The translations under genes and the position numbers were made by a program. Under the pieces are notes generated by a model that was given only the letters and a program-made list of their open reading frames with translations, was not told the origin of the DNA and made no database searches. Positions 36,591-53,868 of a stretch of DNA of 64,000 nucleotides are shown here, piece by piece. Numbering within the stretch: position 1 is the stretch's first letter; the number at the start of each line of letters is the position of its first letter. The DNA comes from an uncultured Gemmatimonadaceae bacterium (GTDB lineage Bacteria > Gemmatimonadota > Gemmatimonadetes > Gemmatimonadales > Gemmatimonadaceae): positions 224,001 through 288,000 of the forward strand of contig CAWHHI010000008.1 in the NCBI GenBank assembly GCA_963829055.1, read 5' to 3'.

Positions 36591-37730
36591 CTAGCGCGAG
36601 ATCGAGCGCTGGAGCAACTCGAGGATGTCCGATTGTTCACCCGCGGGGAGCACGCAGTCAGCGGGACGCATGCGCCAGAGTGTCTCCGCGAGGCTGAGCT
36701 TCCGTTCCGTGACCGCAGTGAGGTCGCCTCGCGGCTTCGGCGCGGCGCGCTCCGCACGCGCCGAGTCCAGAACCGCTACGTCCGCGGCCACGGTGTCAGC
36801 CGCCGCACACGCGCCGAGCGCGACGAGCGTGCGTTCGAGCAGCGCCTGGCTCCGCGTTAGGCGTGCCGCATCACTCAGCCCGCGGCCGGTCGGGTCGAGT
36901 GCGAGCACGGAGTCGATCACCCGCAGCCTCCGGACGATCGTACTGTCCGACGGCCGCGCGCGCACCGCACTTCGAAACGCCGCGCGCCCTGCCTGAAATT
37001 GGCCGAGCGCGAGGTCAGCCTCACCCAATCCCGCGTAGGCATCCGCGTTGGACGGCGAGCGACGGAGCAGCGCGCGGTAGGCTTCCGCCGCCCTCGATGG
37101 CGAGTCGGCGCGCAGGTACAGCGGCCCGAGCCGCGCGAGCAACGCCGCGCTATCGGCGGGAGCGCTCTGTAATGGAAGCAGTTCCGCGAGCAGCTCCTCG
37201 TGCGCCTGTTGCCGCGCCAGGAGATCGATCAGCTCGAAGCGCGCCGCCGTTCGCTGAGCGATGCTGTCGCTTCCCCATCTGCCGTAGATGGCCCAATGAT
37301 AGAACGCCTTCGCGTCGCTCGTCCGCGCAGTGCTCGCGAGCAGACGAGCCATCGTTAGGTTCACCGCGCCATCGTTCCGGGCCCGATCGAGGAGCCGGTT
37401 GAGGATCTCTTCCGCATCGGCCGCCTTTCCATTCGCGAGGAGTGCCTGGGCGAGCGCGAGCCCGTAGCCGACGTTGTCGCGCTCGAGCGTGGTCGCGGTC
37501 GCGAGACGGTCCGCTGCATCGCCGGGCCGGCCGGCCGCGAGCAGCGCTCGGCCCTCGGCGAACGCGTTCGCCGCCTGCCGCCGCCTCTCCTCGCGATCGA
37601 TGCGCGCCAGGGCGAGGTCGAGGACGAGCAGCCCGACAATGAGGCCGAGTATCGCGGCGAATGTGCCGAGAAAGACGCCGGTGCTCGCCAGCGGCCTTCC
37701 GACCGGCGGCGCGGGCGCAGCGTCAGTCAT
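36591..37730 (-). CDS. Membrane-anchored tetratricopeptide repeat protein
   Basis: N-terminal TM helix, TPR-like AAEAYRALLRRSPSNADAYAGLGE; overlaps the ClC stop. Confidence 0.75.
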   Translation of the reverse strand: MTDAAPAPPVGRPLASTGVFLGTFAAILGLIVGLLVLDLALARIDREERRRQAANAFAEGRALLAAGRPGDAADRLATATTLERDNVGYGLALAQALLANGKAADAEEILNRLLDRARNDGAVNLTMARLLASTARTSDAKAFYHWAIYGRWGSDSIAQRTAARFELIDLLARQQAHEELLAELLPLQSAPADSAALLARLGPLYLRADSPSRAAEAYRALLRRSPSNADAYAGLGEADLALGQFQAGRAAFRSAVRARPSDSTIVRRLRVIDSVLALDPTGRGLSDAARLTRSQALLERTLVALGACAAADTVAADVAVLDSARAERAAPKPRGDLTAVTERKLSLAETLWRMRPADCVLPAGEQSDILELLQRSISR

Positions 37731-39536
37731 CGGACGCCTCTACAGCCGCGATCTCGTCCGCGCGCTCCACGCCGTATGCGGTGAGGACGTCGTCGAGCGT
37801 CACGACGCCGAGCAGCAGACGTACGTTGGCGCGACTGACGACAGGCAGCACGCTGTGATGAGTCTCGCCCATCCGCGCGAGCGCGTGCCCGAGCGGCTGA
37901 TCACCATGCACGTGCGCGAAACGCAGCGGCTCGCGTCGTGACCGGCCCTCTCGCTCGGCCACTGCCGCGAGTAGCGCACCGATGGTCTCGTCGGCTGCGC
38001 CGGATGCTGCACGCTTCTCCATATCGGAGACTCGCACCATCCCGAGAAAGCCGTCGCCGTCAGCGACGGGCCACGACCGGAGTGCGCTGCCCGCCACGCG
38101 GTCCAGCGCATGGCGAAGCTGCAGATCGGGCGTCAGGGGCTCTGGCGATTCGCGAATGGCCTCGTTCACGCGCAACCGGCCTGCATGCTGGCGCGACTCC
38201 CCGGTCGGCAGATGCAGCCCGTCCTGTCGCGCGAGCGCCTCGTAGAGCGGCTCGCGCTGCAGACGCTGCGAGATGTAGAACGCGATCAGGTTCGAGATCA
38301 TGAGCGGAACGATGATCGTGTAGTCCCGCGTCACCTCGAAGATCATGATGACCGACGTGAGCGGCGTGCGGATGATTCCCGCGAAGGCGGTCCCCATGCC
38401 GACGAGCGCGTAGGCACCGGGACCCGCAGTGCTCGCGGGGAGGAGGCCGTGCGCGACCGCTCCGACCGCCGCACCCATCATCGCGCCCATGAACATGCTC
38501 GGCCCGAAGACGCCACCGGCATTCCCGGACGCGTAGCACACGGCCGTCGCGATGATCTTGAGCACGGCGAGCAGCACGACGGTGCGCAACACGAGGTCGC
38601 CGCCTAGCACGCGATCGACCTGGTCGTAGCCGACGCCGAGTACCGCAGGCACGAAGTAGCCGAGGAGGCCAACCAGTAGACCGCCGACGGTCGGATACCA
38701 CCACACACCCGTGCGTGGAAGGAGGGCGAACCGTCGGCGGAGAAAGAGCAGGAGCTTGACGAAGCCGACCGACCCAAGCCCTCCGACGATCCCGAGCGCG
38801 CCGTACACGATGAGCTCCGTGGCGCTCACCAGCCGATACGGCGTCACGTGGAACAGCGGCTCGTCGCCGAGCACGAGATGGAGAACCATCCATGCCGTCG
38901 TCGAGCTGAGCACGATCGAGCCGAGGATGGGCGCATGCAGGTCGCCCATGATCTCCTCGAGCGAGAACAACACGGCCGCGATCGGCGTGTTGAACGCCGC
39001 CGCGAGCGCCGCGGCTCCGCCCACCGGGACGAGCCATCGCACCTGCGCCTGACTCATGCCGAGTCGTCGTCGCGATGACCGACGCGATGCCCGAGCCGAT
39101 GTGCACCGACGGGCCTTCGCGGCCGAGCGCGATACCGCTCGCGAGCGAGGTCGCGCAGCACACGAACTTGCCGACGACCGTGTGCAGCGTGATGCGTCCG
39201 TCGTGGATGAAGATTGCGGCGCGCGTCTGAGGAATCCCGCTCCCGCGCGCCTCAGGAAAGAAGCGATACAGGAGGATCCCACTCACCAGCGCCCCGAGCA
39301 CCGGAACGACGACGCGGCGCCAGCCTGCGGCGCCCGCCGGGTACATGTGCGCGGCGAGGCGTCCCGTGAGCAAAACGAACGCGACGACGACGAGGCCGAC
39401 GAGCGCGCCGATCACGAGGCTCAGTAACGAGCGCCAGCCGATCCTCGCGTCGCCGCAGGTCCTCGACGAGCGAGGCGAGGCGTTCGAGTGCCGCGGCGAT
39501 CGCGCTGCGTGTTTCCGGTAGCGTGGGTGCGGTCAC
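37723..39536 (-). CDS. ClC chloride channel / H+/Cl- exchanger with CBS domains (apparent frameshifts near 39425 and 39070)
   Basis: GSGIP, GREGPSVHIG, AAAFNTPIA, GGVFGPS, FEVTRDY, C-terminal CBS pair. Confidence 0.92.
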
Positions 39537-41729: not shown

Positions 41730-43314
41730 ATGTCCCCGACCCGCCGCGAAGCACTCGCACAGCTCGCCGCTCTCGTCGCGCTCCCGCTCCCGGCGTGGAG
41801 CGCTGGCGCCACCGACCCACTCGACGGCACCGTCGCCGACTACCAGGCGGGGCGACGTCGGAAGAAGTGGACCGCGGCCGAGGTGACTGCCCGCGCGCTC
41901 GAACGCTGCCGCGCCGACGGTATGAAGTGGCACGCGATCGACGCGCTTTCCAACACGGCGATCGCCGATGCGCGCGCCGCCGATGACCGGCTGCGCGCCG
42001 GTCGCGTGCGCGGGCCTCTCGACGGCGTCCCCGTGTTCGCGAAGGCGATCTACGACATGAACGGGCTCCCGACCACGGGGTCGAGCGCGGAGTGGGCGCG
42101 TCTCTTCCCCGAGGCCGTGCGGCGTGACGCGCTCGAGGTGACGCGCATGCGCGCGGCAGGCGCGATCGTCCTTGGGAAAACCGCGGCCGATGACTTCGCG
42201 TATCGTGGCAATGGTACGAGCAGCCACACCGGGCAGGTGCTCAATCCGTACGATCGCACGGGCACGCGCACGCCCGGCGGCTCGAGCGCGGGCTCGGCCG
42301 TCGCCGTGGCGAGCGGGATGGCGTTCGCGGCGTTAGGCACCGACGACGGCGGGTCGAATCGCATCCCGGCGCAGTTCACCGGCGTGGTCGGAATGAAGCC
42401 GACGTTCGGGCTCGTGCCACGCACCGGCGTCATCCCGACGTGGCCGTACCTCGACACACACGGTCCGCTCGCTCGCACGGTCGCCGACGCGGCGCTGCTC
42501 CTCGCCGCCATCGCGGGGGCTGACGCATCCGACCCACTCGCGCTCACTGGCGCGTGGGACGGCGCGCCGTTGGCCAGACTGAGCGATGACGCACTCGCCG
42601 GCGTGCGCCTCGGGCTCGTCGAGGCGCACGTGCCGCGCGCGCAGATGACGCCGGAGGCGCTCGCGATGTGGGACCGCGCGTTAGGTGACCTGCGCGCCGC
42701 CGGCGCGATGGTCGAGCCCTTCGCCGCCGCGGTGACGCGCGTGAACTACCGCGACGCGTTTGCCGCCTCGGCCCGCGGCCGCAACGACGTGGCGGTGGAT
42801 GCGAACTCGCCGGCCCCCACCGCGAACGCCCTGCTCCGCTACTTCGAAGGCCGCGCCGACGACCCGCGCGCGGCAGTACGGCGCGGGTACGCCGGCGTAC
42901 CGCGCATTCTACGACGTGCTGCCCGCCACGTACGAGGAGTGCGAGCCGCTGCTCGACCGCCCGATGGCGGAAGACCCGGCAGGACGCTCGTTCGCGCGCT
43001 CGCGCGCCGAGGTGGTGGCCACACTCGCAGCGTCGATGCGCGCGGCGGGTGTCGCGGCCATGGTCTACCCGACGATGCCGTTCAACGCCCCGCGCGCCGT
43101 CGACAAGTGGCCGGACATCCGCACCGCGTTAGGCTACGGCAACTGGCTCGGCCTGCCGGAAGTGTCGGTCCCGGGCGGACTCGGCGCGGACGGAATGCCC
43201 GCGCTCAACGTGTCGATCGTCGGCCTTCCCGGTGAGGACGCCCGCGTACTCGCGTTGGCGCACGCCTACGAGCGGCACTCACGCCGTTTCGTGGCGCCGC
43301 CGCGCGCGGGGTAG
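41730..43314 (+). CDS. Amidase signature family protein with Tat-like signal (apparent frameshift near 42890)
   Basis: TRREAL leader, GPLDGVP..K, PGGSSAGSA, GTDDGGSNRIP; C-terminus GLPEVSVP..LAHAYE in the 42760 frame. Confidence 0.88.
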
Positions 43315-43345
43315 TGCACGCGGCGGCGCTCGATCGGAGGACGCA

Positions 43346-44002
43346 TCACGCCGCGCAGCCGCTTTTCGGGACCTGATAGTCGCAGCGGCAACGTCCAGGC
43401 GCACAGCTCATCCCCGGGCGACCAGCCCGCACGCAGCGCCAGCACTGCGCGAGCGGCTCGCTCGCCTCGGGCAACCCGAGCACGCGCCCAGCGACCGCGG
43501 CACCACCGGGAAGTACGGCGCGTAACGCCGGACGTCCTGCCGCATCGAACGACAGCTCGGCGAGGGCGACGAAGCCTGCCTTCCTGATACCGGAACCCGA
43601 CGCGTGGTTCTCGGGCGCGTACGCGATCCAGAACCGTTCAGCCTCGCGCGACTCAGCGCGCACGATCGCGTCGAGCAGCCGCGGATATACGCCCAGGCCG
43701 CGGTGGGATTTCAGCGTCACGAAGTTCCAGAGATACCGCTCGCCTTCCGGGATGGGGAACGTCGTGCGCAGCTCGCCGATCTCCGCGGACCGGGTGGCGA
43801 CCCAGCCCCACGCGGCCGGCTGCCCGTTCATCTCGGCGACGTACGCACGGTGTCCGGCCTCGAAGCGCCGGGTCATCTCATCGGCGGTGCGCTCCTGCAG
43901 GGCAGCCATCACGGAGGCGCTCTCCTCCCGGCGCACCGAGAACCCGGGAAGCGACATCAACGAAGGCGTTGGATCATCACGGCGACGAGCGGCGAATGGC
44001 AT
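43346..44002 (-). CDS. GNAT-fold acetyltransferase with six-cysteine C-terminal tail
   Basis: YLWNFVTLKSHRGLGVY, ENHASGSGIRKAGF; tail CWRC-x9-C-x4-CRC-x8-C. Confidence 0.8.
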   Translation of the reverse strand: MPFAARRRDDPTPSLMSLPGFSVRREESASVMAALQERTADEMTRRFEAGHRAYVAEMNGQPAAWGWVATRSAEIGELRTTFPIPEGERYLWNFVTLKSHRGLGVYPRLLDAIVRAESREAERFWIAYAPENHASGSGIRKAGFVALAELSFDAAGRPALRAVLPGGAAVAGRVLGLPEASEPLAQCWRCVRAGRPGMSCAPGRCRCDYQVPKSGCAA

Positions 44003-44070
44003 GACAGGATCCTCGGGTCGTTTCGTTAGGCAGTGAATGGCGTCGGACTGACGTGCAGCACGCTACGAAC

Positions 44071-44115
44071 AGACTACACATCTCTGAGACTGTGCTCTTG
44101 AACGAACGGGCTGAC
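44071..44115 (-). promoter_or_regulatory. Candidate AraC-activated promoter of the GNAT gene
   Basis: Minus strand GTCAGCC-cgtt-CGTTCAAGAG, 18 nt, TAGTCT. Confidence 0.7.
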
Positions 44116-44135
44116 CTTTCGGCCGCGTGCGTCGC

Positions 44136-45470
44136 TCAGCGACGAGCTGGCGGATCGAGGAATCCGGGCGGCGCCGTGAGCGGCCCGCTCAACGTTCGCA
44201 GAAAGGCCACCAGCTGATCCATCTCGCGTTGCGAGAGCCGAAGCGTCTTGAGCTCACTGTGGCCGAACGGCGCACGCGGGGCATTGCTGTAGTGCGCGAC
44301 GACCTGCTCCAGCGTGGCGATCTGTCCGGCGTGCATGTAGGGCGCGCGAGCCGCGACGTTTCTGAGCGATGGCGTCTTGTAGGCGCGCAGAAGCTCCTCG
44401 CCCTCCGTCACGGCGAACCGCAGTTCCTCGCAGTCCTCTGCCTTGGCGTCGCTGTAGCGGCTCGTGCAGTTGAATTCGCCCGCCACTGCCTGCCGGACTC
44501 CTAACGCGCGTCCGCTGTCGGGACTCGCGACGGCCGACGATGCGGGCACGCCGGTGTTGTGGAAATGGTTGTCGGTGAGCAGCGGCCCGTTGTGGCACGT
44601 GACGCAATTCGCCTTGCCAATGAACAGGCGCAGTCCGGCTTCCTCGTCCTTCGAGAATGCGTTGTCCTGGGTTTTCGGCTTTCCGTTCAGCTCTGCGTCC
44701 ACGTAGCGGTCGAAGCGTGAAGGCGCGTACTCGATGCGCCGCTCGTAGGCGGCGATCGCCTTACCGATGTTCGCGTAGACCTGGGTGATTTCCTCACGAC
44801 GCACGGCTGGAATCCGCTGCCATGCGCCGCGCCATGCGGTGTCGGCGACCGGGCCGGCGCGCTGCGGCAGTCCCGCGAGATCCGGCAGCTTTCCGAACAC
44901 GGCCTCGTACTCGCCACGATAGTGCGCGCCAACGACGTGCGCGTACTGGGTGCGGCTGCCGCCGTGTTCGACCGCACTCTCGAGCGGGCCTAACGCCTGC
45001 GCCCACTGGCTGTCCGCTCGGCCATCCCAGAACAGCCACGGGCTGTGCGCCGTACCCGCGACCGGCATCGTGCGCCGAGTCGTCGTGCCGACGCCGTCGG
45101 CCAGCGGCTTTCCGTCCTGGAAATCCGTCGACGCGATGTGGCACGTCGCGCACGACACCTTCCCGTTGCCACTGAGCCGCGTCTCGAAGAACAGTTCTCG
45201 GCCGAGCGCCGCCGCGCGGGCGTCGTCCGCATAGCGGTTGGACGGGTCCGCCGGCACAGGGCCAAGACTCGTTAGCGACAGAGACCGCAGCATCGTGCGG
45301 TCCTGGGCGGACCAGCGCGGGGAGCCGTTGCCAGCGCCTCGGGCGGCGGCGGTGGAGACGACCGTCGTGCCAAGCGCGCTGGCCAACACGCTCACCAACA
45401 CGGCGAACAACAAGCTGTCGGTCATTCTCGAGTTGGCCCGGCCGGTGGGCCCAACGCGGTTGCGTGACAT
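44136..45470 (-). CDS. Di-heme cytochrome c peroxidase / MauG superfamily protein, exported
   Basis: LGRELFFETRLS, CATCH, LFWDGRADS, CVTCHNGPLLTD, KTPSLRNV..RAPYMHAG; signal peptide. Confidence 0.9.
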   Translation of the reverse strand: MSRNRVGPTGRANSRMTDSLLFAVLVSVLASALGTTVVSTAAARGAGNGSPRWSAQDRTMLRSLSLTSLGPVPADPSNRYADDARAAALGRELFFETRLSGNGKVSCATCHIASTDFQDGKPLADGVGTTTRRTMPVAGTAHSPWLFWDGRADSQWAQALGPLESAVEHGGSRTQYAHVVGAHYRGEYEAVFGKLPDLAGLPQRAGPVADTAWRGAWQRIPAVRREEITQVYANIGKAIAAYERRIEYAPSRFDRYVDAELNGKPKTQDNAFSKDEEAGLRLFIGKANCVTCHNGPLLTDNHFHNTGVPASSAVASPDSGRALGVRQAVAGEFNCTSRYSDAKAEDCEELRFAVTEGEELLRAYKTPSLRNVAARAPYMHAGQIATLEQVVAHYSNAPRAPFGHSELKTLRLSQREMDQLVAFLRTLSGPLTAPPGFLDPPARR

Positions 45471-45530
45471 GGCAGGCTCTAGTGGAGGTCAGTGGACGGC
45501 GTGTGCGTGCAGTTCCGATCAGAGCTCGCG

Positions 45531-45953
45531 TCAGAGCTTGAGATTGAACACGAGTGAGTCACTGCCCGCGGTCGCGTTCACGCGGAACTTCACGACCCAC
45601 CAGCCGCCCATGTTGAACTTCATGCCTTCGACGAGGTGGTCGCCGTTGCCCAGCTCTCGCGTGACGCGGGGCTTCGTTGGCAGACCGTGTCCGTGCTGCG
45701 GCATGCCGCCGTCGACCACCATGGTGGCGGAGTCGACCGGCGCGCCGCTCGCGGTTTCGAGGTGAACCGTCCAGCGGTGCAATCGACCCTGGGGGATCGA
45801 GTCACCCTGCGGGTGGATCGTCGCGCGGTAGAGCCCGCCCTCGCTGGTGCGCGTCCGCGAGTAGTCCAGATCCTTGGGGGCCTTGGCGAACATCATGCAG
45901 CCGCTGAACAGGAATGCGGCGACAGCGGTAGCGAGCCTGGATGTAGAGCGCAT
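45531..45953 (-). CDS. YtkA/FixH-like lipoprotein with MPxHxHG motif
   Basis: Lipobox FSGC, VDGGMPQHGHGLPTKP, GMKFNMGGWW; GGAG RBS. Confidence 0.8.
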   Translation of the reverse strand: MRSTSRLATAVAAFLFSGCMMFAKAPKDLDYSRTRTSEGGLYRATIHPQGDSIPQGRLHRWTVHLETASGAPVDSATMVVDGGMPQHGHGLPTKPRVTRELGNGDHLVEGMKFNMGGWWVVKFRVNATAGSDSLVFNLKL

Positions 45954-46014
45954 GTGAATGCTCCGAGCGGGAGGTTGCGAGTCGAAAACGCCCACGTCGC
46001 GTGGACGTGGGCCT

Positions 46015-46080
46015 AGGTTACTCGCGCTCCGCACTGCGCTCTTGAACGACGAGGCTGCGTCGTTGAACGTAGGGGCTGAC
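46015..46080 (-). promoter_or_regulatory. Tandem candidate AraC boxes and -10 element for the YtkA-like/peroxidase operon
   Basis: Minus strand GTCAGCC-ccta-CGTTCAACGA then CGCAGCC-tcgt-CGTTCAAGAG (21-bp period), 18 nt, TAACCT. Confidence 0.72.
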
Positions 46081-46129
46081 TTGAATGAGCCGAGGTCGGG
46101 CCCTGGGCTATCGGAGCTCCAGCGGTGCG

Positions 46130-46632
46130 CTACCGGGTAGCGGCGCTATCCCTGAGCGGGCCGGCCAGGTGCATCGCCGACGGGGGGAAGCCGAACATCC
46201 GACGCGACGTCCGCGTTAGGTGTGCGGCGTCGGCGAATCCGGCCCGATGCGCGGCCGACGACAGCGACTCGCCAGCGGTCATGAGCTCCCACACCCTGAG
46301 GAACCGACGCCAGAGGATGTACGGCCGGAGCGCCATGCCCGTCTCCTCGACGAAGAGGTGGCGAAAACGACTCGGCGAGAGATAGGCCGCGGCCGCTATG
46401 TCCGCACCACCGACGCATCCATCGTATGCGGCTGCCTCGAGGGGATGAGCACGCCGTCGTACTCGGTCCAGTCATCACGATCGGACGCCCGAAAGCGAAT
46501 ACCATGTTGCGACCCGAACGCGATCTGAATGGCGTAGTGCGCATGCATCGGGGTCACCGCGGTCGCCCGACTCAGGAACGCGCACCCACCGTCCCAGGAC
46601 ACAAAGTGCCCAGTTCCTACTACAGTGCTCAC
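46130..46632 (-). pseudogene. AraC family regulator with an out-of-frame internal deletion
   Basis: Cupin-like N-domain (MHAHYAIQI, IPSRQPHTMD) joined at about 46400 directly to HTH DIAAAAYLSPSRFRHLF...AGFADAAHLTRTSRRMFG; only about 167 codons. Confidence 0.82.
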
Positions 46633-46762
46633 GAGACCCTCCCCTTCCTGTCGTGCCAATCGTACGCGCCGAGCAGCGGATGGCAATTGTTGTTTGCACA
46701 GCCCGCCGTGCGGATCGTGCCTCCACGTTAGGTCCGCGATCGGGAACGGTAGAAGAACAAAC

Positions 46763-46807
46763 GTCAGCCTCTCCGTTCAAGAGTCCGGCGGCCGACGGCG
46801 TCATCTT
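46763..46807 (+). promoter_or_regulatory. Candidate AraC-activated promoter of the second YtkA-like gene
   Basis: GTCAGCC-tctc-CGTTCAAGAG, 18 nt, CATCTT. Confidence 0.7.
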
Positions 46808-46861
46808 CCTGTCGCCTGCCAACGTTTGTTCGTTCTGATGCCCGTACGGGCGAGAGGAATC

Positions 46862-47419
46862 ATGCACACGCAGACTGGGGAACTTCCGATTTTCGGTGCG
46901 CCGGCGGATGCCGAGCAGCAGGGGACTCGACTGACCGTCACCATGGCCGGCGCGTTTCTGCTCATCGCCGCGCTGTCGTGGGCGACGTGGGCAAGACCCG
47001 CCGAGATGACCAACCTGTCGGCGAGTGCCGGAGTGCCGTCCGCGGCCGGCATCGTCACGAGCCTCGGCCTGCGCCCCTCGCACAACGCGCGCTACCAGGC
47101 CGAAGTCACGTCGGTCACGCCTTTCGCGCTCCGCGAGCCACAGCGTTGGGCGATACGCCTAACGCAACACGGCGAAGGGCAAGTCGCGAATGCGCGGATC
47201 AGAGTGAAGTCGTGGGCGCCCGAAACCGGCGAGGTGTCGCGCATCACGCCAAGCGCTCATTACGTCGGAGGCGGTCGATACGTGGTGGACGACATCATTT
47301 TCAACCGCCCGGGACTGTGGAACGTCGCACTGGTCATTGACGGCCCCGCCGGAGTCGACAGCGTCGCCTTCAACGTCATCATGCCAACGTCATCGCTGGA
47401 GGCGCGCCTGCAGCGGTGA
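46862..47419 (+). CDS. Second YtkA/FixH-like membrane-anchored protein lacking the His motif
   Basis: GAGGA RBS; TM helix; GGGRYVVDDIIFNRPGLWNV...GVDSVAFN aligns with GNGDHLVEGMKFNMGGWWVV...GSDSLVFN of 45531..45953. Confidence 0.72.
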   Translation: MHTQTGELPIFGAPADAEQQGTRLTVTMAGAFLLIAALSWATWARPAEMTNLSASAGVPSAAGIVTSLGLRPSHNARYQAEVTSVTPFALREPQRWAIRLTQHGEGQVANARIRVKSWAPETGEVSRITPSAHYVGGGRYVVDDIIFNRPGLWNVALVIDGPAGVDSVAFNVIMPTSSLEARLQR

Positions 47420-47548
47420 CCGGGCGGAATGTGTATTGCCCTTCAGCGCTCCGATGGACGCTCGACGGGCATTCGGTCCGGCAGCGTCTGTCTCGGGGGG
47501 CCATGCACACTACCGCGACACCCGCCGGGACCATGTTGGCCCAGCGAG

Positions 47549-47781
47549 CCGACGTCTCCGGGTCATATCCACGAGGACGTTAGGCGGACCCAACGTCTGG
47601 CACCTCGCGCCGGCGCTGGTCGCGGAGGTGCGCACCGGCTCGCTGGTCGACGTCGGGTGCAGAAGCGCAGAGGTCGTGCAGTCTCGAGGAGGCCGACGCG
47701 GTCGCGCACGTAATCGACGTGATGCGTCCGGGCGACATCGTCGTCATCATCGCCGACGCGGCGTCAGTGCTGCAGGATCAG
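47549..47781 (+). pseudogene. Probable cyanophycin synthetase remnant (extreme N- and C-terminal pieces only)
   Basis: LRVISTRTLGGPNVW resembles the CphA N-terminus; EEADAVAHVIDVMRPGDIVVIIAD resembles the Mur-ligase-like C-terminus. Confidence 0.5.
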
Positions 47782-47919
47782 CCCCTGGGGTACTGGGGCT
47801 GCACAGACGACTCGACCACCCGGCGCCTAACGCGTCGGGCGGGTCCCGGCGCGCCATCATCAGCGCGCCGCCGCCAGCACGCCCGCGGCGACGTGCGCGG
47901 CGCGCTGACGCCACCGAGA

Positions 47920-48555
47920 TCACCCGTCAGCGACGTCCATCCAGAACTCCGGGAGCCCACGCACTTGCTGCAAGGCTGCCGCAGCGCGCGGGTCTCGCAG
48001 CGCACGTGTCATCGTGCGCAGTGTCACACCATGGCTCGGCCGAGAGATGACCTCCGCGGCATCGCCCGCTCCGACGTCGCCCTCTTCGATGACGCGGAAG
48101 TACGCGCCCGAGCGTTCGGCGGCGAGGAATTTCTTCGGGAAGAGTCGATCGCCCATGCGAATGCCGAGCTTGTAGCACGGCAGACGTGGCTGTGCGACCT
48201 CGAGCAGCGCCGACCCGATCCGCCATCGCTCGCCAACGACCGTCGCGGAAAGATCGACGCCCTCGAGCGTTAGGTTCTCTCCGAACAGGCCCACCGGCGT
48301 CTCGATGCCCTCGTGCGAGCGCCAGAACTCGTAGTCCTCGCTCGCATAGGCGTACACCGCCTTGTCCGGGCCGCCGTGCACGGTCCTGTCAGCCTGATCG
48401 TCTCCGACGAAGTTCACGCCTCGGAGCGCGACGCGCCCGGTGACGGGCGACTTCCAGATCCCGGTGGTGACGAGCGTTCCGCGCCACTCGACTTCACGGA
48501 TGGCGCCGACGTTGACGGACAACACGCGTGGCGTCGTCGCCGTCGGGCTACTCAC
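47920..48555 (-). CDS. MOSC domain protein (YiiM-like)
   Basis: TGIWKSPV, GDDQADRTVHGGPDKAVY, FGENLT, QPRLPCYKL. Confidence 0.92.
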   Translation of the reverse strand: MSSPTATTPRVLSVNVGAIREVEWRGTLVTTGIWKSPVTGRVALRGVNFVGDDQADRTVHGGPDKAVYAYASEDYEFWRSHEGIETPVGLFGENLTLEGVDLSATVVGERWRIGSALLEVAQPRLPCYKLGIRMGDRLFPKKFLAAERSGAYFRVIEEGDVGAGDAAEVISRPSHGVTLRTMTRALRDPRAAAALQQVRGLPEFWMDVADG

Positions 48556-48910
48556 CGCCGCACGTCCGCGCCCACGGGATCAGATCGAGTCGCTCGAACG
48601 GGATGTCGCGGCCGGTGTTCTCACAGACACCGAACTCGTTAGGCCGCTGATACAGTCGCTCGAGGGCCGCGTCGATCTCGGCGAGCTCACGCGAGATGCG
48701 CGTCTCGTTCGACGCCTGGAGCTCGTCGTTCATGGTGTCGGTCCCGAGGTCGGCGGGGTGGAACGGCATTTGGGACAGGTCTCCCGCCTCATCTCGCTGG
48801 GTGCCGTCCGCCTGGTCAGTCACTTCTCGATTCAGCAGACTGAGCGCTCGCGCGCGCTCATCCAGCAGACGCCGTCCGAGGTGCGCGCGTTGCGCGGTGG
48901 TGAGGGACAT
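48548..48910 (-). CDS. TraR/DksA family protein (YteA-like), two-cysteine variant
   Basis: HPADLGTD, EIDAALERL...FGVCENTGRDIPFERLDLIPWARTC; AGGAG RBS. Confidence 0.88.
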   Translation of the reverse strand: MSLTTAQRAHLGRRLLDERARALSLLNREVTDQADGTQRDEAGDLSQMPFHPADLGTDTMNDELQASNETRISRELAEIDAALERLYQRPNEFGVCENTGRDIPFERLDLIPWARTCGGE

Positions 48911-48989
48911 GAGTTTGCTCCTGGTTGAGGGCCGTCAGGCGAGACTCTCGACTGAAGCATACCGGCGCGGCGCCGTCCTCAGAATGCTG

Positions 48990-49255
48990 CGCCGGTCCTA
49001 TCCTCAACGCGCCGACCAATCATCGTCTCGCGAAACGCAGGGTTCGAGGGTGGGTCCTTGGCTCTAGAGACTGGCAGGGTCCCACGCAGCAACCCGAGGG
49101 CGCCCTACATCGGGAACGGCCGCTATCAGGTGGACAGCATCTACTTCACTCGTCCGGAGTTGTGGAGCGTCGGACTCGTCATTCGCGCTGATGCGGGCGT
49201 GGACAGCCTTGCCTCCACCGCCAACATGCCAGACACATCACGACGACAGCGTTAG
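48990..49255 (+). pseudogene. Decayed third copy of the YtkA-like gene (3' half)
   Basis: YIGNGRYQVDSIYFTRPELWSVGLVIRADAGVDSLA vs YVGGGRYVVDDIIFNRPGLWNVALVIDGPAGVDSVA. Confidence 0.75.
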
Positions 49256-51961: not shown

Positions 51962-52095
51962 GGTGGGACCGGCGAGGGACTGCGAGCGCGCAGACGCGCC
52001 AGTGAACATACGCCGAGGTTCACGACGTGTCCACTCGGGCCGGCGGCGCTTAGTGGTCCTGCCTAACTACCGCACGAACGTTCGGCGTCACCATT

Positions 52096-52117
52096 GGCGA
52101 CGCGATATCGCGTCGCC
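52096..52117. other. Perfect 22-bp palindrome between the MFS gene and the kinase
   Basis: GGCGACGCGATATCGCGTCGCC. Confidence 0.5.
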
Positions 52118-52215
52118 TGGACAGTGCTTGTGAAAATCGCGTTCAGCGGAGCGCGCAGGCGCGCCGCGACCGTGGGAATCCAAACGCGCCGCGTTTCTCG
52201 TTAGGCCCGCGACGT

Positions 52216-53868
52216 CTACTCCATGATCGCGTGAGATCCGCCAGCACCGCGCGTCTGCCGCACGAGCAGGAGCATGGGGATGATCGCCAGAATGATGATC
52301 GCGCTGAGCACGTAGACGCGGGAATACGCGATCACACTCGCCTGCCCCATGAGCTGTCCCTCGATCAGCCGATACGCTCGCGCGCGCGCCGTCACTGCGT
52401 CCACACCTCGGCCCATCATGCCGCGCGTGAGCATCTCGACCCGATTCAGACTCGTCGCATCGATCGACGTGACGTGCTCGGCCAGCACGGCGCGATACTG
52501 CGCCGTGTATCGCGAGAGCAGCGTCGCGATACCCGCGATGCCGAACGAGCCACCGAGCTGGCGGAAGAAGTTGTAGAGCCCGGTTCCCTGCGGCAGCTCC
52601 GCGGTCGAGAGCTCGGCAAGCGTGATCGTGGTGAGCGGCACGAACATCAAGCCGAGGCCCGACGCCGCGGAGAATGAGCGGCCAGAAGAAATCGCCGGCG
52701 CCGCTCTCGCCGGTGATGCGCGATAGCTCCCACGCCGCGGTCGCGAAGATCAGCGCGCCCGCCGTGATGAGCAGTCGAGGATCCACGCGACTCGTCAGGC
52801 GGCCGACGACCAGCATCGAGAGCGCGGTCGCGACGGCACCCGGCAGCAGCACGATGCCCGTCTGCTCCGCCGTCATGTGCAGGTTGCTCTGCAGGAAGAC
52901 CGGGAGCGTGAACGACATGGCGTAGAGCCCGATGCCCATCACGACGCCGAGCAGCGTACCCACCCACATCTGGCGATGACGGAGGACGCGGAAGTCGATG
53001 ACCGGCTCGCGCGTCGTGAGCTCTCGCCACACGCAGCGCGACGCCGCCGACGACGCCGATCGACCGCGAGACTCGTGATGAAACGGGATTCGAACCAGTC
53101 GTCGCGCTGTCCGTGCTCGAGCAGGTACTGCAGCGCCCCGACGCTCACGGCCAGCAGCCCGATGCCAACATAGTCGATCGCGCCCGGCTTCTTCTGGTCG
53201 GCGCGGTCGTGGACGTACGCCGCGATCATGACCGACGCGAGGATACCGACCGGGATGTTGATGTAGAAGATCCACGGCCACCCGTAGTTGTCCGTCAGCC
53301 ACCCGCCTAACGTTGGACCGATCGTCGGGCCGACCATCACGCCGACGCCGAACAGCGCCATGGCGGTGCCGGCCTCCTCGGGCGGGAAGGACTCGAGCAG
53401 CACGGCCTGGGACACGGTCATGAGCGCGCCACCACCGATGCCCTGGACGATGCGCCAGAAGATCAGCGCGCCGAGCGAGTGTGACGCGCCGCAGAAGAAC
53501 GACGACACGGTGAACAGCGCGATCGAGCCGACGAAGTAGCGCTTCCGTCCGAACAGCTGACCGAGCCAGCCCGTGAGCGGGATGACGATCACGCTCGCGA
53601 GGATGTAGCCGGTCGTGACCCACGCGATCTCGTCGAGCGATGCGCCGAGGTTGCCCATCATGTCGGGCAGCGCGACGTTCACGATGGAGCTGTCGATGAC
53701 CTGCATGAGCGCGGCGAGCACGACAGCGAACGCGATGAGGTAGCGATGCTCCTCACCGCGACGGCGCTCGGGGACGGCAACGCCGGCGGGCGCCTCTGGC
53801 GTTAGGTCTTCTTCGATCGGGGTGGTACCCGCGCCGGCGTGGTCGTCGTCGACCTGAATCGTGGTCAT
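52216..53868 (-). CDS. DHA2 (EmrB/QacA) MFS efflux permease (apparent frameshifts near 53050 and 52660)
   Basis: MQVIDSSIVNVALP, WVTTGYILA, FGRKRY, GPTLGGWLTD..WPWIFYINIPVG, NFFRQLGGSFGIA. Confidence 0.92.

Follow-up and report, generated by a model that had tools for sequence, protein, structure and literature searches.

A conserved promoter box and a predicted AraC-type regulon linking metallothionein-like peptides to a YtkA and di-heme enzyme pair

We analysed a 64,000-nucleotide (nt) stretch of an uncultured Gemmatimonadaceae bacterium (GenBank assembly GCA_963829055.1, contig CAWHHI010000008.1, positions 224,001 to 288,000 of the forward strand), here called the window, in which copies of a 21-bp box precede the genes for a GNAT acetyltransferase, a YtkA-like lipoprotein followed by a di-heme enzyme, and a second YtkA-like protein. 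The box is a conserved promoter element and the likely target of one subfamily of AraC/XylS activators, and we hold it to be very probable that the genes behind it form a regulon of such an activator. With less confidence, we favour the view that this regulon protects the cell from an excess of copper or comparable soft metals. The complete reading, a copper defence shared across phyla that combines a metal-sensing AraC protein with a His3-Gln cupin, unannotated metallothioneins and a new MauG-type enzyme and partner pair, has in our estimate a probability of about 35%.

The box and its promoters

A sequence-only reading of this DNA had placed boxes at 44095-44115, 46039-46059 and 46060-46080 on the minus strand and at 46763-46783 on the plus strand, and all four are present. 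Searching the window with up to three mismatches gave five matches against 0.22 expected, a number reached in 0 of 100 shuffles; the fifth match, at position 2235, has three mismatches and lies beyond the locus. Exact copies of the pattern number two in the whole 7.78-Mb genome, and the window holds both. A position weight matrix (PWM) was iterated on 107 related loci (858 kb) that excluded the window locus, 27 of them collected with an N-terminal piece of araC (one being a second locus of the same genome) and 80 with YtkA. The matrix, trained and counted on the same loci, yielded 254 sites of at least 14 bits against one in a first-order Markov control. The 21-bp box is real as proposed, but its conserved core comprises the 16 nt from position 3 to 18, CAGCC-NN-T-N-CGTTCAA; positions 1 and 2 and the AG at the end contribute little information. 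The features of the locus are listed below in window coordinates.

43346..44002, minus strand: GNAT acetyltransferase with a six-Cys C-terminal tail (Pfam Acetyltransf_1 above cut-off; tail pattern in 30/31 orthologs)
44071..44076, minus strand: predicted -10-like hexamer TAGTCT of the GNAT promoter (18 nt past box 1; spacing conserved across loci)
44095..44115, minus strand: box 1, AraC-type site (PWM 29.6, top score in the genome)
44136..45470, minus strand: bCcP/MauG-family di-heme enzyme whose heme-2 ligand position is taken by a Tyr (PF03150; alignment to solved structures); an alternative start is possible at ATG 45425
45531..45953, minus strand: YtkA-like predicted lipoprotein with a CrdA-like fold (PF13115, 43.4 bits; invariants in 83/83; CrdA fold match)
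45990..46012, minus strand: covarying hairpin with a T-rich tail directly past the -10 (in 34/59 boxed Gemmatimonadota ytkA promoters; covariation)
46015..46020, minus strand: predicted -10-like hexamer TAACCT of the ytkA-peroxidase promoter (18 nt past box 2)
46039..46059, minus strand: box 2, proximal copy of a tandem pair (PWM 18.9)
46060..46080, minus strand: box 3, distal tandem copy with a 21-bp period (PWM 25.3)
46130..46632, minus strand: araC-family regulator, broken as assembled (DNA alignment to three intact homologs; contigs of near-identical strains)
46763..46783, plus strand: box 4 (PWM 29.4)
46802..46807, plus strand: predicted -10-like hexamer CATCTT (18 nt past box 4)
46862..47419, plus strand: second YtkA-like protein, of the membrane-anchored type and lacking the His/Met motif (PF13115, 26.7 bits; alignment)

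As had been read from the sequence, each proximal box faces a gene and is followed after exactly 18 nt by its hexamer (TAGTCT, TAACCT or CATCTT). The start codon comes another 55-70 nt further on. The three hexamers share an A at position 2 and a T at position 6, and a Shine-Dalgarno-like word precedes the starts of the GNAT, ytkA and second YtkA-like genes. The 18-nt spacer applies to all three promoters of the window but becomes 18 or 19 nt across relatives: among 196 unique proximal sites, a NANNNT hexamer is found at spacer 18 in 139, at spacer 19 in 37 and at either in 175, whereas any other spacer from 10 to 27 nt has one in at most 11. The predicted -10 elements behind the boxes are of the sigma-70 type.

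The spacing within close same-strand box pairs (n=49) is 21 nt in 39, 22 nt in 9 and 30 nt in one. Both this tandem spacing and the fixed distance to the -10 agree with the AraC-type site of roughly 21-bp period over the -35 region suggested earlier. If a 17-nt spacer is assumed, the -35 hexamer would coincide with the final five bases of the box described here, as in the class II geometry of AraC/XylS activators (AraC I1-I2, XylS, RhaS and MarA/SoxS boxes). Similar to these systems, the site described here is asymmetric, with two sub-motifs about 10 bp apart, repeats at 21-22 bp and the proximal copy over the -35 region, and the regulator has a C-terminal HTH_18 domain and an N-terminal cupin. 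It differs from them in the motif sequence, in an invariant His3-Gln set and in its metal-type targets, which include a metallothionein-like peptide.

Of the 244 unique proximal boxes counted over 161 loci, only one falls within a recognised gene, and the box heads transcription units despite heavy shuffling of the gene order around the regulator in relatives. Box-headed units were found in Gemmatimonadota, Alpha- and Betaproteobacteria and one Spirosoma plasmid. When all PWM matches in the genome were ranked, the window boxes took ranks 1, 2, 4 and 8, and the boxes beside an araC paralog on contig C4 ranks 3 and 5. The three promoters proposed earlier belong to a larger predicted set of at least five in this genome. 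Matches at C20:460173 and all those below 17 bits were set aside; the ones inspected had no fitting -10 or gene start, except for one marginal case on contig C16. A box-like site of 19.6 bits at C6:288491 (+), with TATAGT at spacer 18, precedes a small membrane protein and is divergent from yet another regulator-like open reading frame, and it may be a regulon member or a look-alike.

A generic promoter and terminator scan did not call the box promoters, which lack a consensus -35. The two sigma-70-like sites that it reported include one at 46686-46659, upstream of araC. An Rfam scan of 43000-48000 gave no match at E<=1, and two metatranscriptome runs, apparently one data set, contributed only short scattered pieces over the region.

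The hairpin at the ytkA promoter has a stem of 9-13 bp, which starts 0-2 nt past the -10, and a tail with a mean of 4.3 T in the next 8 nt. Its mean folding energy is -20.1 kcal/mol for the whole structure versus -6.5 if transcription starts 7 nt in. Two-sided changes are seen in 8/10 pairs and the loop varies in length, pairing figures that are inflated by the selection of these sequences for the hairpin. The element overlaps the predicted ytkA transcription start site and is likely a terminator of araC read-through from which box-driven transcripts escape. It was missed by the generic scan because its tail falls below the T threshold used there.

The regulator and its association with the box

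The AraC gene in the middle of the locus had been taken as the activator, which is not supported by alignment of the DNA to three intact homologs. The window copy, as assembled, lacks 292-298 nt at 46403/46404, with a change of frame. What is missing is the end of the cupin sensor domain together with the linker and helix 1 of the DNA-binding domain, and the loss may be a deletion in the strain or an assembly error. Contigs of near-identical strains (runs X1, X3 and X8) continue into other sequence at this position, which fits an intact araC allele in these strains, and no piece listed in six DNA runs bridges the window's own junction. Runs X2 and X4, from two studies, contain a different, larger deletion (window 46403-46550) with the neighbouring boxes retained, and the local araC therefore seems to have been lost repeatedly in this species. 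Frame changes are also present in a chloride-channel-like gene (37723-39415), an amidase (41730-43314), a transporter-like gene (52088-53868) and the peroxidase on contig C20; the assembly therefore probably contains many indel errors.

Because the window's own araC is internally deleted, the activator is likely the intact 284-residue paralog on contig C4, acting in trans. This paralog is part of a unit with the order box, flavin monooxygenase, araC, box and Cys-rich, metallothionein-like peptide. It matches HTH_18 (PF12833) with 57.3 bits, and its scores stay below the cut-off for every named NCBIfam AraC family. The structural model (predicted local distance difference test score, pLDDT, 92.6) consists of a cupin and an AraC DNA-binding domain, with full-length matches to ToxT, Rns and CuxR, while a sequence search of the sensor domain against the PDB returned only weak cupin matches and no solved full-length close relative. 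The subfamily is large: at E<=1e-30 it takes in 3957 of the 7997 candidates that were scored. Its cupin has invariant His33, His35 and His72 (72/72) and a Gln39 in 71/72, and we infer from the general cupin motif that these four residues may form a metal site. No Cys is invariant in the subfamily, and one is frequent (40/72). A box heads the monooxygenase and araC unit in 40 of the 56 relative loci that have both genes, which suggests positive autoregulation. On contig C4, the word GCCTAACG overlaps the -10 of the peptide promoter (C4:209667), and the reverse of GCCTAACG immediately precedes the -10 in the monooxygenase promoter (C4:211867).

The box co-occurs with this AraC subfamily, as the sequence-only reading had anticipated. 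The exact core is present in 19 of the 26 phylum genomes with the AraC versus 26 of the 374 without it, and two or more exact cores in 13/26 versus 2/374 of the same 400 genomes, counts that are partly circular because 26 of the loci used for training belong to these genomes, and that were obtained with a 96-residue piece of AraC as the query among kin that are not independent. The remaining seven AraC genomes have PWM-level boxes beside araC, and a control with the reversed pattern gave 10 matches in 401 genomes. Out of sample, 36 metagenome loci were collected with the Cupriavidus AraC, which is 39% identical to the paralog, and 33 of them are boxed (34 boxes in 216 kb), three loci of this set being near-duplicates that carry the same peptide. 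Among 401 genomes sampled from the Microvirga phylum, the AraC matches at E<1e-25 are boxed in 5/5 cases; among eight weaker matches, six have no box and two have variant boxes. Boxes also flank the AraC gene on plasmids of Polaromonas, Cupriavidus, Sinorhizobium fredii, Spirosoma and Gemmatirosa.

The ytkA loci separate the regulator from its target. This AraC is encoded in 55 of the 80 loci, every one of which has its box upstream of ytkA, and 16 more are boxed without this AraC in the fetched stretch, while none of the nine unboxed loci has it and three of these have another AraC subfamily and a different upstream word. In the genome of the window, C20:839534-844919 holds a second operon of ytkA, di-heme enzyme, multicopper oxidase and YtkA-like gene, which is unboxed and divergent from another AraC subfamily. 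The split among the loci and the unboxed operon therefore indicate that the box follows the regulator and not the target gene. This bears on the idea that the box is a dispersed repeat or serves an alternative sigma factor as its -35 element, to which we attach hardly any weight. TTCAAG does resemble a -35 hexamer, and one exact core occurs in the 26/374 genomes without a detected AraC, but TTCAAG and the -10 are 20 nt apart, the tandem copies keep a period of 21-22 bp and no sigma gene is found among the annotated recurring clusters, as judged from the part of the clusters that was scanned.

Other arrangements were seen around related regulators. The word upstream of the unboxed C20 operon, ATT(C/G)T(A/T)CCAAAA, recurs in loci L033, L061, L069, L075 and L078, and a decayed box of the first type comes after it in L069 and L078, as if the operon had switched regulators. 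The boxed unit on contig C4 is directly adjoined by a region (C4:211928-214084) in which a frameshifted AraC of the second subfamily is divergent from an isocyanide-hydratase-like gene and a small membrane protein. Distant AraC relatives at L124:2149 and L125:2181 have variant boxes with a changed 5' half, which precede a fatty-acid-hydroxylase-like or DUF3703-like gene.

Genes behind the box

The first genes after the 244 boxes that we attribute to the AraC-type activator encode YtkA (87), the Cys-rich peptide (40), the monooxygenase (35), unassigned proteins (28), GNAT (13), outer-membrane-barrel-like proteins (12), small membrane proteins (8) and DUF3703 (5), and in rare cases multicopper oxidase (3), cyclase (3), DJ-1 (2), hydrolase (2) or others (2 or fewer). 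Since YtkA was the query for 80 of the loci, its share is inflated. In Polaromonas, DUF3703 forms a fusion with YtkA (L109:13976-14812), and by itself it is the first gene past the box at L115:1005-1364 and likewise in other proteobacterial loci, which ties it to the regulon.

The enzymes in this set raise the question of whether the same regulon responds to an organic metal-binding toxin, such as an isocyanide or a copper ionophore, that is caught on the cupin metal. The enzymes would then degrade or modify the toxin, while the metallothionein and YtkA would mop up the metal carried in with it. Consistent with this, an arylformamidase-like cyclase, hydrolases, the monooxygenase and GNAT are boxed or linked, a linked DJ-1 protein is close to the isocyanide hydratase InhA (212 bits, E 6e-62), and the His3-Gln cupin may leave room for a ligand. 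However, DJ-1, the cyclase and the hydrolases rarely come first, the simplest recurring unit is that of araC, box and peptide alone, and the InhA-like gene of this genome adjoins the other AraC subfamily and is unboxed. We thus regard a toxin signal as unlikely, and favour soft metals as what the regulon responds to.

The Cys-rich peptides look like real genes. They are about 45-95 residues long and start with a Shine-Dalgarno word and an ATG (21 peptides), and in 13 hand-picked pairs the Cys residues are kept in 157/158 columns compared with 297/511 for other residues, with 18 silent changes of Cys codons. Their composition is 22.7% Cys and 1.1% His, with CxC motifs and no Trp or Tyr, and a box lies within 250 nt of 42 out of 45 peptides. 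The unit of araC, box and peptide is the commonest one in the out-of-sample set (18/36 loci) and is not found in the window. Four distinct peptides (five look-ups) were absent from a 15-billion-protein collection. A search with eight peptides against Pfam at E<=1 retrieved no prokaryotic metallothionein model and, for two of the peptides, weak plant or eukaryote metallothionein matches below cut-off, five peptides had no such match at E<=0.05, and a homolog search with one peptide produced no candidate. In the ESM atlas, where recognition was low and the result serves as a lead only, the peptide is near unnamed clusters (0.89-0.90) and metallothionein families (0.82-0.85). We consider the peptides to be a probable metallothionein-like family that is uncatalogued; a survey of soil metallothioneins by Li from 2020 may list some of them. 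A reading of the peptide as the precursor of a ribosomally made product with modifications added after translation (RiPP) was dropped, as there is no recurring modifying enzyme and the araC, box and peptide unit often stands alone.

As in SmtA, MymT and the Pseudomonas metallothioneins (PMC7387436), the peptides are small, about 23% Cys and rich in CxC, with a regulator adjacent as for smtA. They differ from these metallothioneins in being His-poor with nearly no aromatics, and in having an AraC neighbour instead of the SmtB repressor; the metallothioneins discussed in that paper are under an SmtB repressor or have no metal regulator. In Cupriavidus sp. P-10, genes for a TolC-like protein, an adaptor and a CusA/CzcA pump (759 bits, cut-off 701) come next after that for the peptide, and the Spirosoma copy is located among copper ATPases and a multicopper oxidase, with its own box preceding a fatty-acid-hydroxylase gene.

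Alternatively, the regulon could serve another metal or metalloid (Zn, Cd, Hg, As) or an oxidant (H2O2, HOCl), in which case the peptide would be a thiol sink and the di-heme enzyme would simply scavenge peroxide, a reading that we find quite improbable. The monooxygenase scores 216.8 bits against the ArsO model NF040505, but this is under the cut-off of 425, and no recurring ars genes are seen among the annotated gene clusters. The CusA/CzcA-type pump comes without a metal assignment, metallothioneins can scavenge reactive species (PMC7387436) and the Tyr-ligated BthA still turns over H2O2 (PMC6405878), whereas the AraC has no invariant Cys for oxidant sensing and the YtkA fold points to Cu/Ag. 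Of the metal or redox response that had been suggested earlier, the link to metal is likely. The copper reading is taken up below with the exported proteins.

The window ytkA gene has its closest relatives in Gemmatimonadaceae. A lipobox-like signal is present in 53/82 YtkA homologs, and Met64, His67, His69, Met95, Trp98 and Trp99 (numbered from residue 21) are invariant in 83/83, with the motif M-P-x-H-x-H. Both matches at E<=0.001 to the YtkA model (pLDDT 93.7) are Helicobacter pylori CrdA, in its apo and Ag-bound forms; the comparison with the CrdA structure gave E 7e-6 and template modelling scores of 0.69/0.77, and the next match E 1.5e-3. CrdA is thus the best structural match, is likewise exported and has an M-P motif at the same place (E 0.18), but instead of the Met-rich MXXMPGM motif of CrdA proper YtkA has M-P-Q-H-G-H. 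This His/Met motif, the di-heme partner and the AraC-type box, in place of control by CrdRS or YcnK, set it apart from CrdA and from Bacillus subtilis CtaK/YcnJ. The second YtkA-like protein had been given its name correctly in so far as it contains the PF13115 domain, but the alignment shows that it is without the M-P-Q-H-G-H motif. A decayed extra copy of its gene (54% over 69 residues) lies at window 48940-49255 (+), with stops, frame changes and no box found. Genes for a MOSC-domain protein and a DksA/TraR-type zinc finger (47920-48910, minus strand) adjoin the module; they have no box and are not recurring neighbours in the clusters of relatives.

CrdA binds Cu(II) with micromolar affinity (PMC9182242), and the YtkA domains of B. 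subtilis assist in CuA assembly and copper handling (PMC13344008, PMC12362106); outside B. subtilis such domains are without experimental study, according to a 2025 paper (PMC12362106). In B. subtilis this support of CuA assembly takes place under copper limitation (PMC12362106), and MbnH and MbnP sit in copper-uptake operons (PMC11951088), so that one may ask whether YtkA and the di-heme enzyme form an MbnP/MbnH-like uptake pair for copper acquisition under shortage, with the peptide as a store. The loci are, however, shared with heavy-metal efflux and copper-export ATPases, and no recurring TonB-dependent or CopD-type importer was found among the annotated clusters, which makes acquisition very unlikely in our view.

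The di-heme enzyme contains both CxxCH motifs and the bridging Trp in 59/59 homologs and the Tyr in 58/59, as well as an extra invariant Cys pair. The alignment does not predict the Met-His ligation of the six-coordinate heme seen in canonical cytochrome c peroxidases, as the Tyr is placed at the Met segment of 1IQC; it aligns with the Tyr of entry 6E1C, which we take to be MbnH. Tyr-His ligation marks MauG and BthA, whereas Met-His marks the canonical peroxidase (PMC6405878), and MbnH has been linked to the conversion of Trp to kynurenine in its copper-binding partner MbnP (PMC11951088). With two CxxCH motifs, the Tyr and the bridging Trp, the enzyme is predicted to work like those of the MauG/MbnH/BthA type. 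Its scores are below the equivalog cut-offs of MbnH (127.6 vs 362.85) and MauG (146.3 vs 443.85), and no mau or mbn genes (preMADH, MbnP) are present in the gene neighbourhoods. Similar to MbnH/MbnP, MauG/preMADH and BthA, it combines the Tyr at the second heme and a bridging Trp with an adjacent small exported partner; unlike in MbnH/MbnP, this partner has the YtkA/CrdA fold with Trp-Trp, while MbnP has WxW.

YtkA is predicted to dock on the di-heme enzyme. The model of the complex scored 0.84 compared with 0.00 for the best of three controls, against a mark reached by 116/157 solved and 2/215 mismatched pairs, which is roughly valid for these alignments, and the score may in part reflect likeness to solved di-heme complexes. 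The runs agreed in at least 91% of contacts, with a partner pLDDT of at least 88, and the modelled interface places the His67/His69/Met95 face of YtkA against residues beside the heme-2 CxxCH.

A possible copper defence

In the mechanism that we favour, metal, or a metal-bound ligand, would bind to the His33-His35-Gln39-His72 cupin as the signal, and the activator on the -35 region would recruit sigma-70 RNA polymerase, often raising its own synthesis through the unit of box, monooxygenase and araC. In the cytoplasm, the His-poor, CxC-rich peptide, and perhaps the six-Cys tail of GNAT, would sequester metal. In the periplasm, the CrdA-like YtkA lipoprotein would hold Cu(I)/Ag(I) by its Met and His residues and dock beside heme 2, where the di-heme enzyme, with H2O2, might oxidise the YtkA Trp, as MbnH does on MbnP, or the bound Cu(I). 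Some lineages may add a multicopper oxidase or CusA/CzcA efflux.

Several points weigh against this mechanism, in addition to the partly circular counts, the related genomes and the possible bias of the complex score described above. His3/Gln cupin sites are found more typically with Mn, Fe, Ni or Zn than with Cu(I) in the cytoplasm, and for many AraC proteins the signal is an organic ligand. Genes for organic substrates (monooxygenase, GNAT, isocyanide-hydratase-like DJ-1, cyclase and hydrolases) are boxed or linked, while a multicopper oxidase is the first gene after only 3/244 boxes. The unboxed C20 operon means that the module does not need this regulator. In B. subtilis, YtkA functions in copper supply rather than detoxification. 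One Pseudomonas metallothionein is dispensable for metal resistance (PMC7387436), and a metallothionein therefore does not prove a metal role.

A literature search, which covered few subscription papers, did not turn up the motif, a metallothionein under AraC control or a pair of the YtkA/MauG type, and the regulon is not described in the available parts of PMC8692599 and PMC11705764. All parts of the system are found in the cultured Gemmatirosa kalamazoonensis KBS708, Cupriavidus sp. P-10 and Sinorhizobium fredii CCBAU 25509, and the inducer and the chemistry are therefore directly testable. The promoter logic itself is that of ordinary AraC activation. The analysis provides a predicted binding motif and a regulon for a large, unstudied AraC subfamily, adds a bacterial metallothionein-like gene family that gene callers seem to miss, and offers a concrete, predicted partner for an orphan clade of MauG-like enzymes. 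If the proposed copper defence is true, the di-heme enzyme would make a Trp-derived copper site, or would clear Cu(I) and peroxide in one step.

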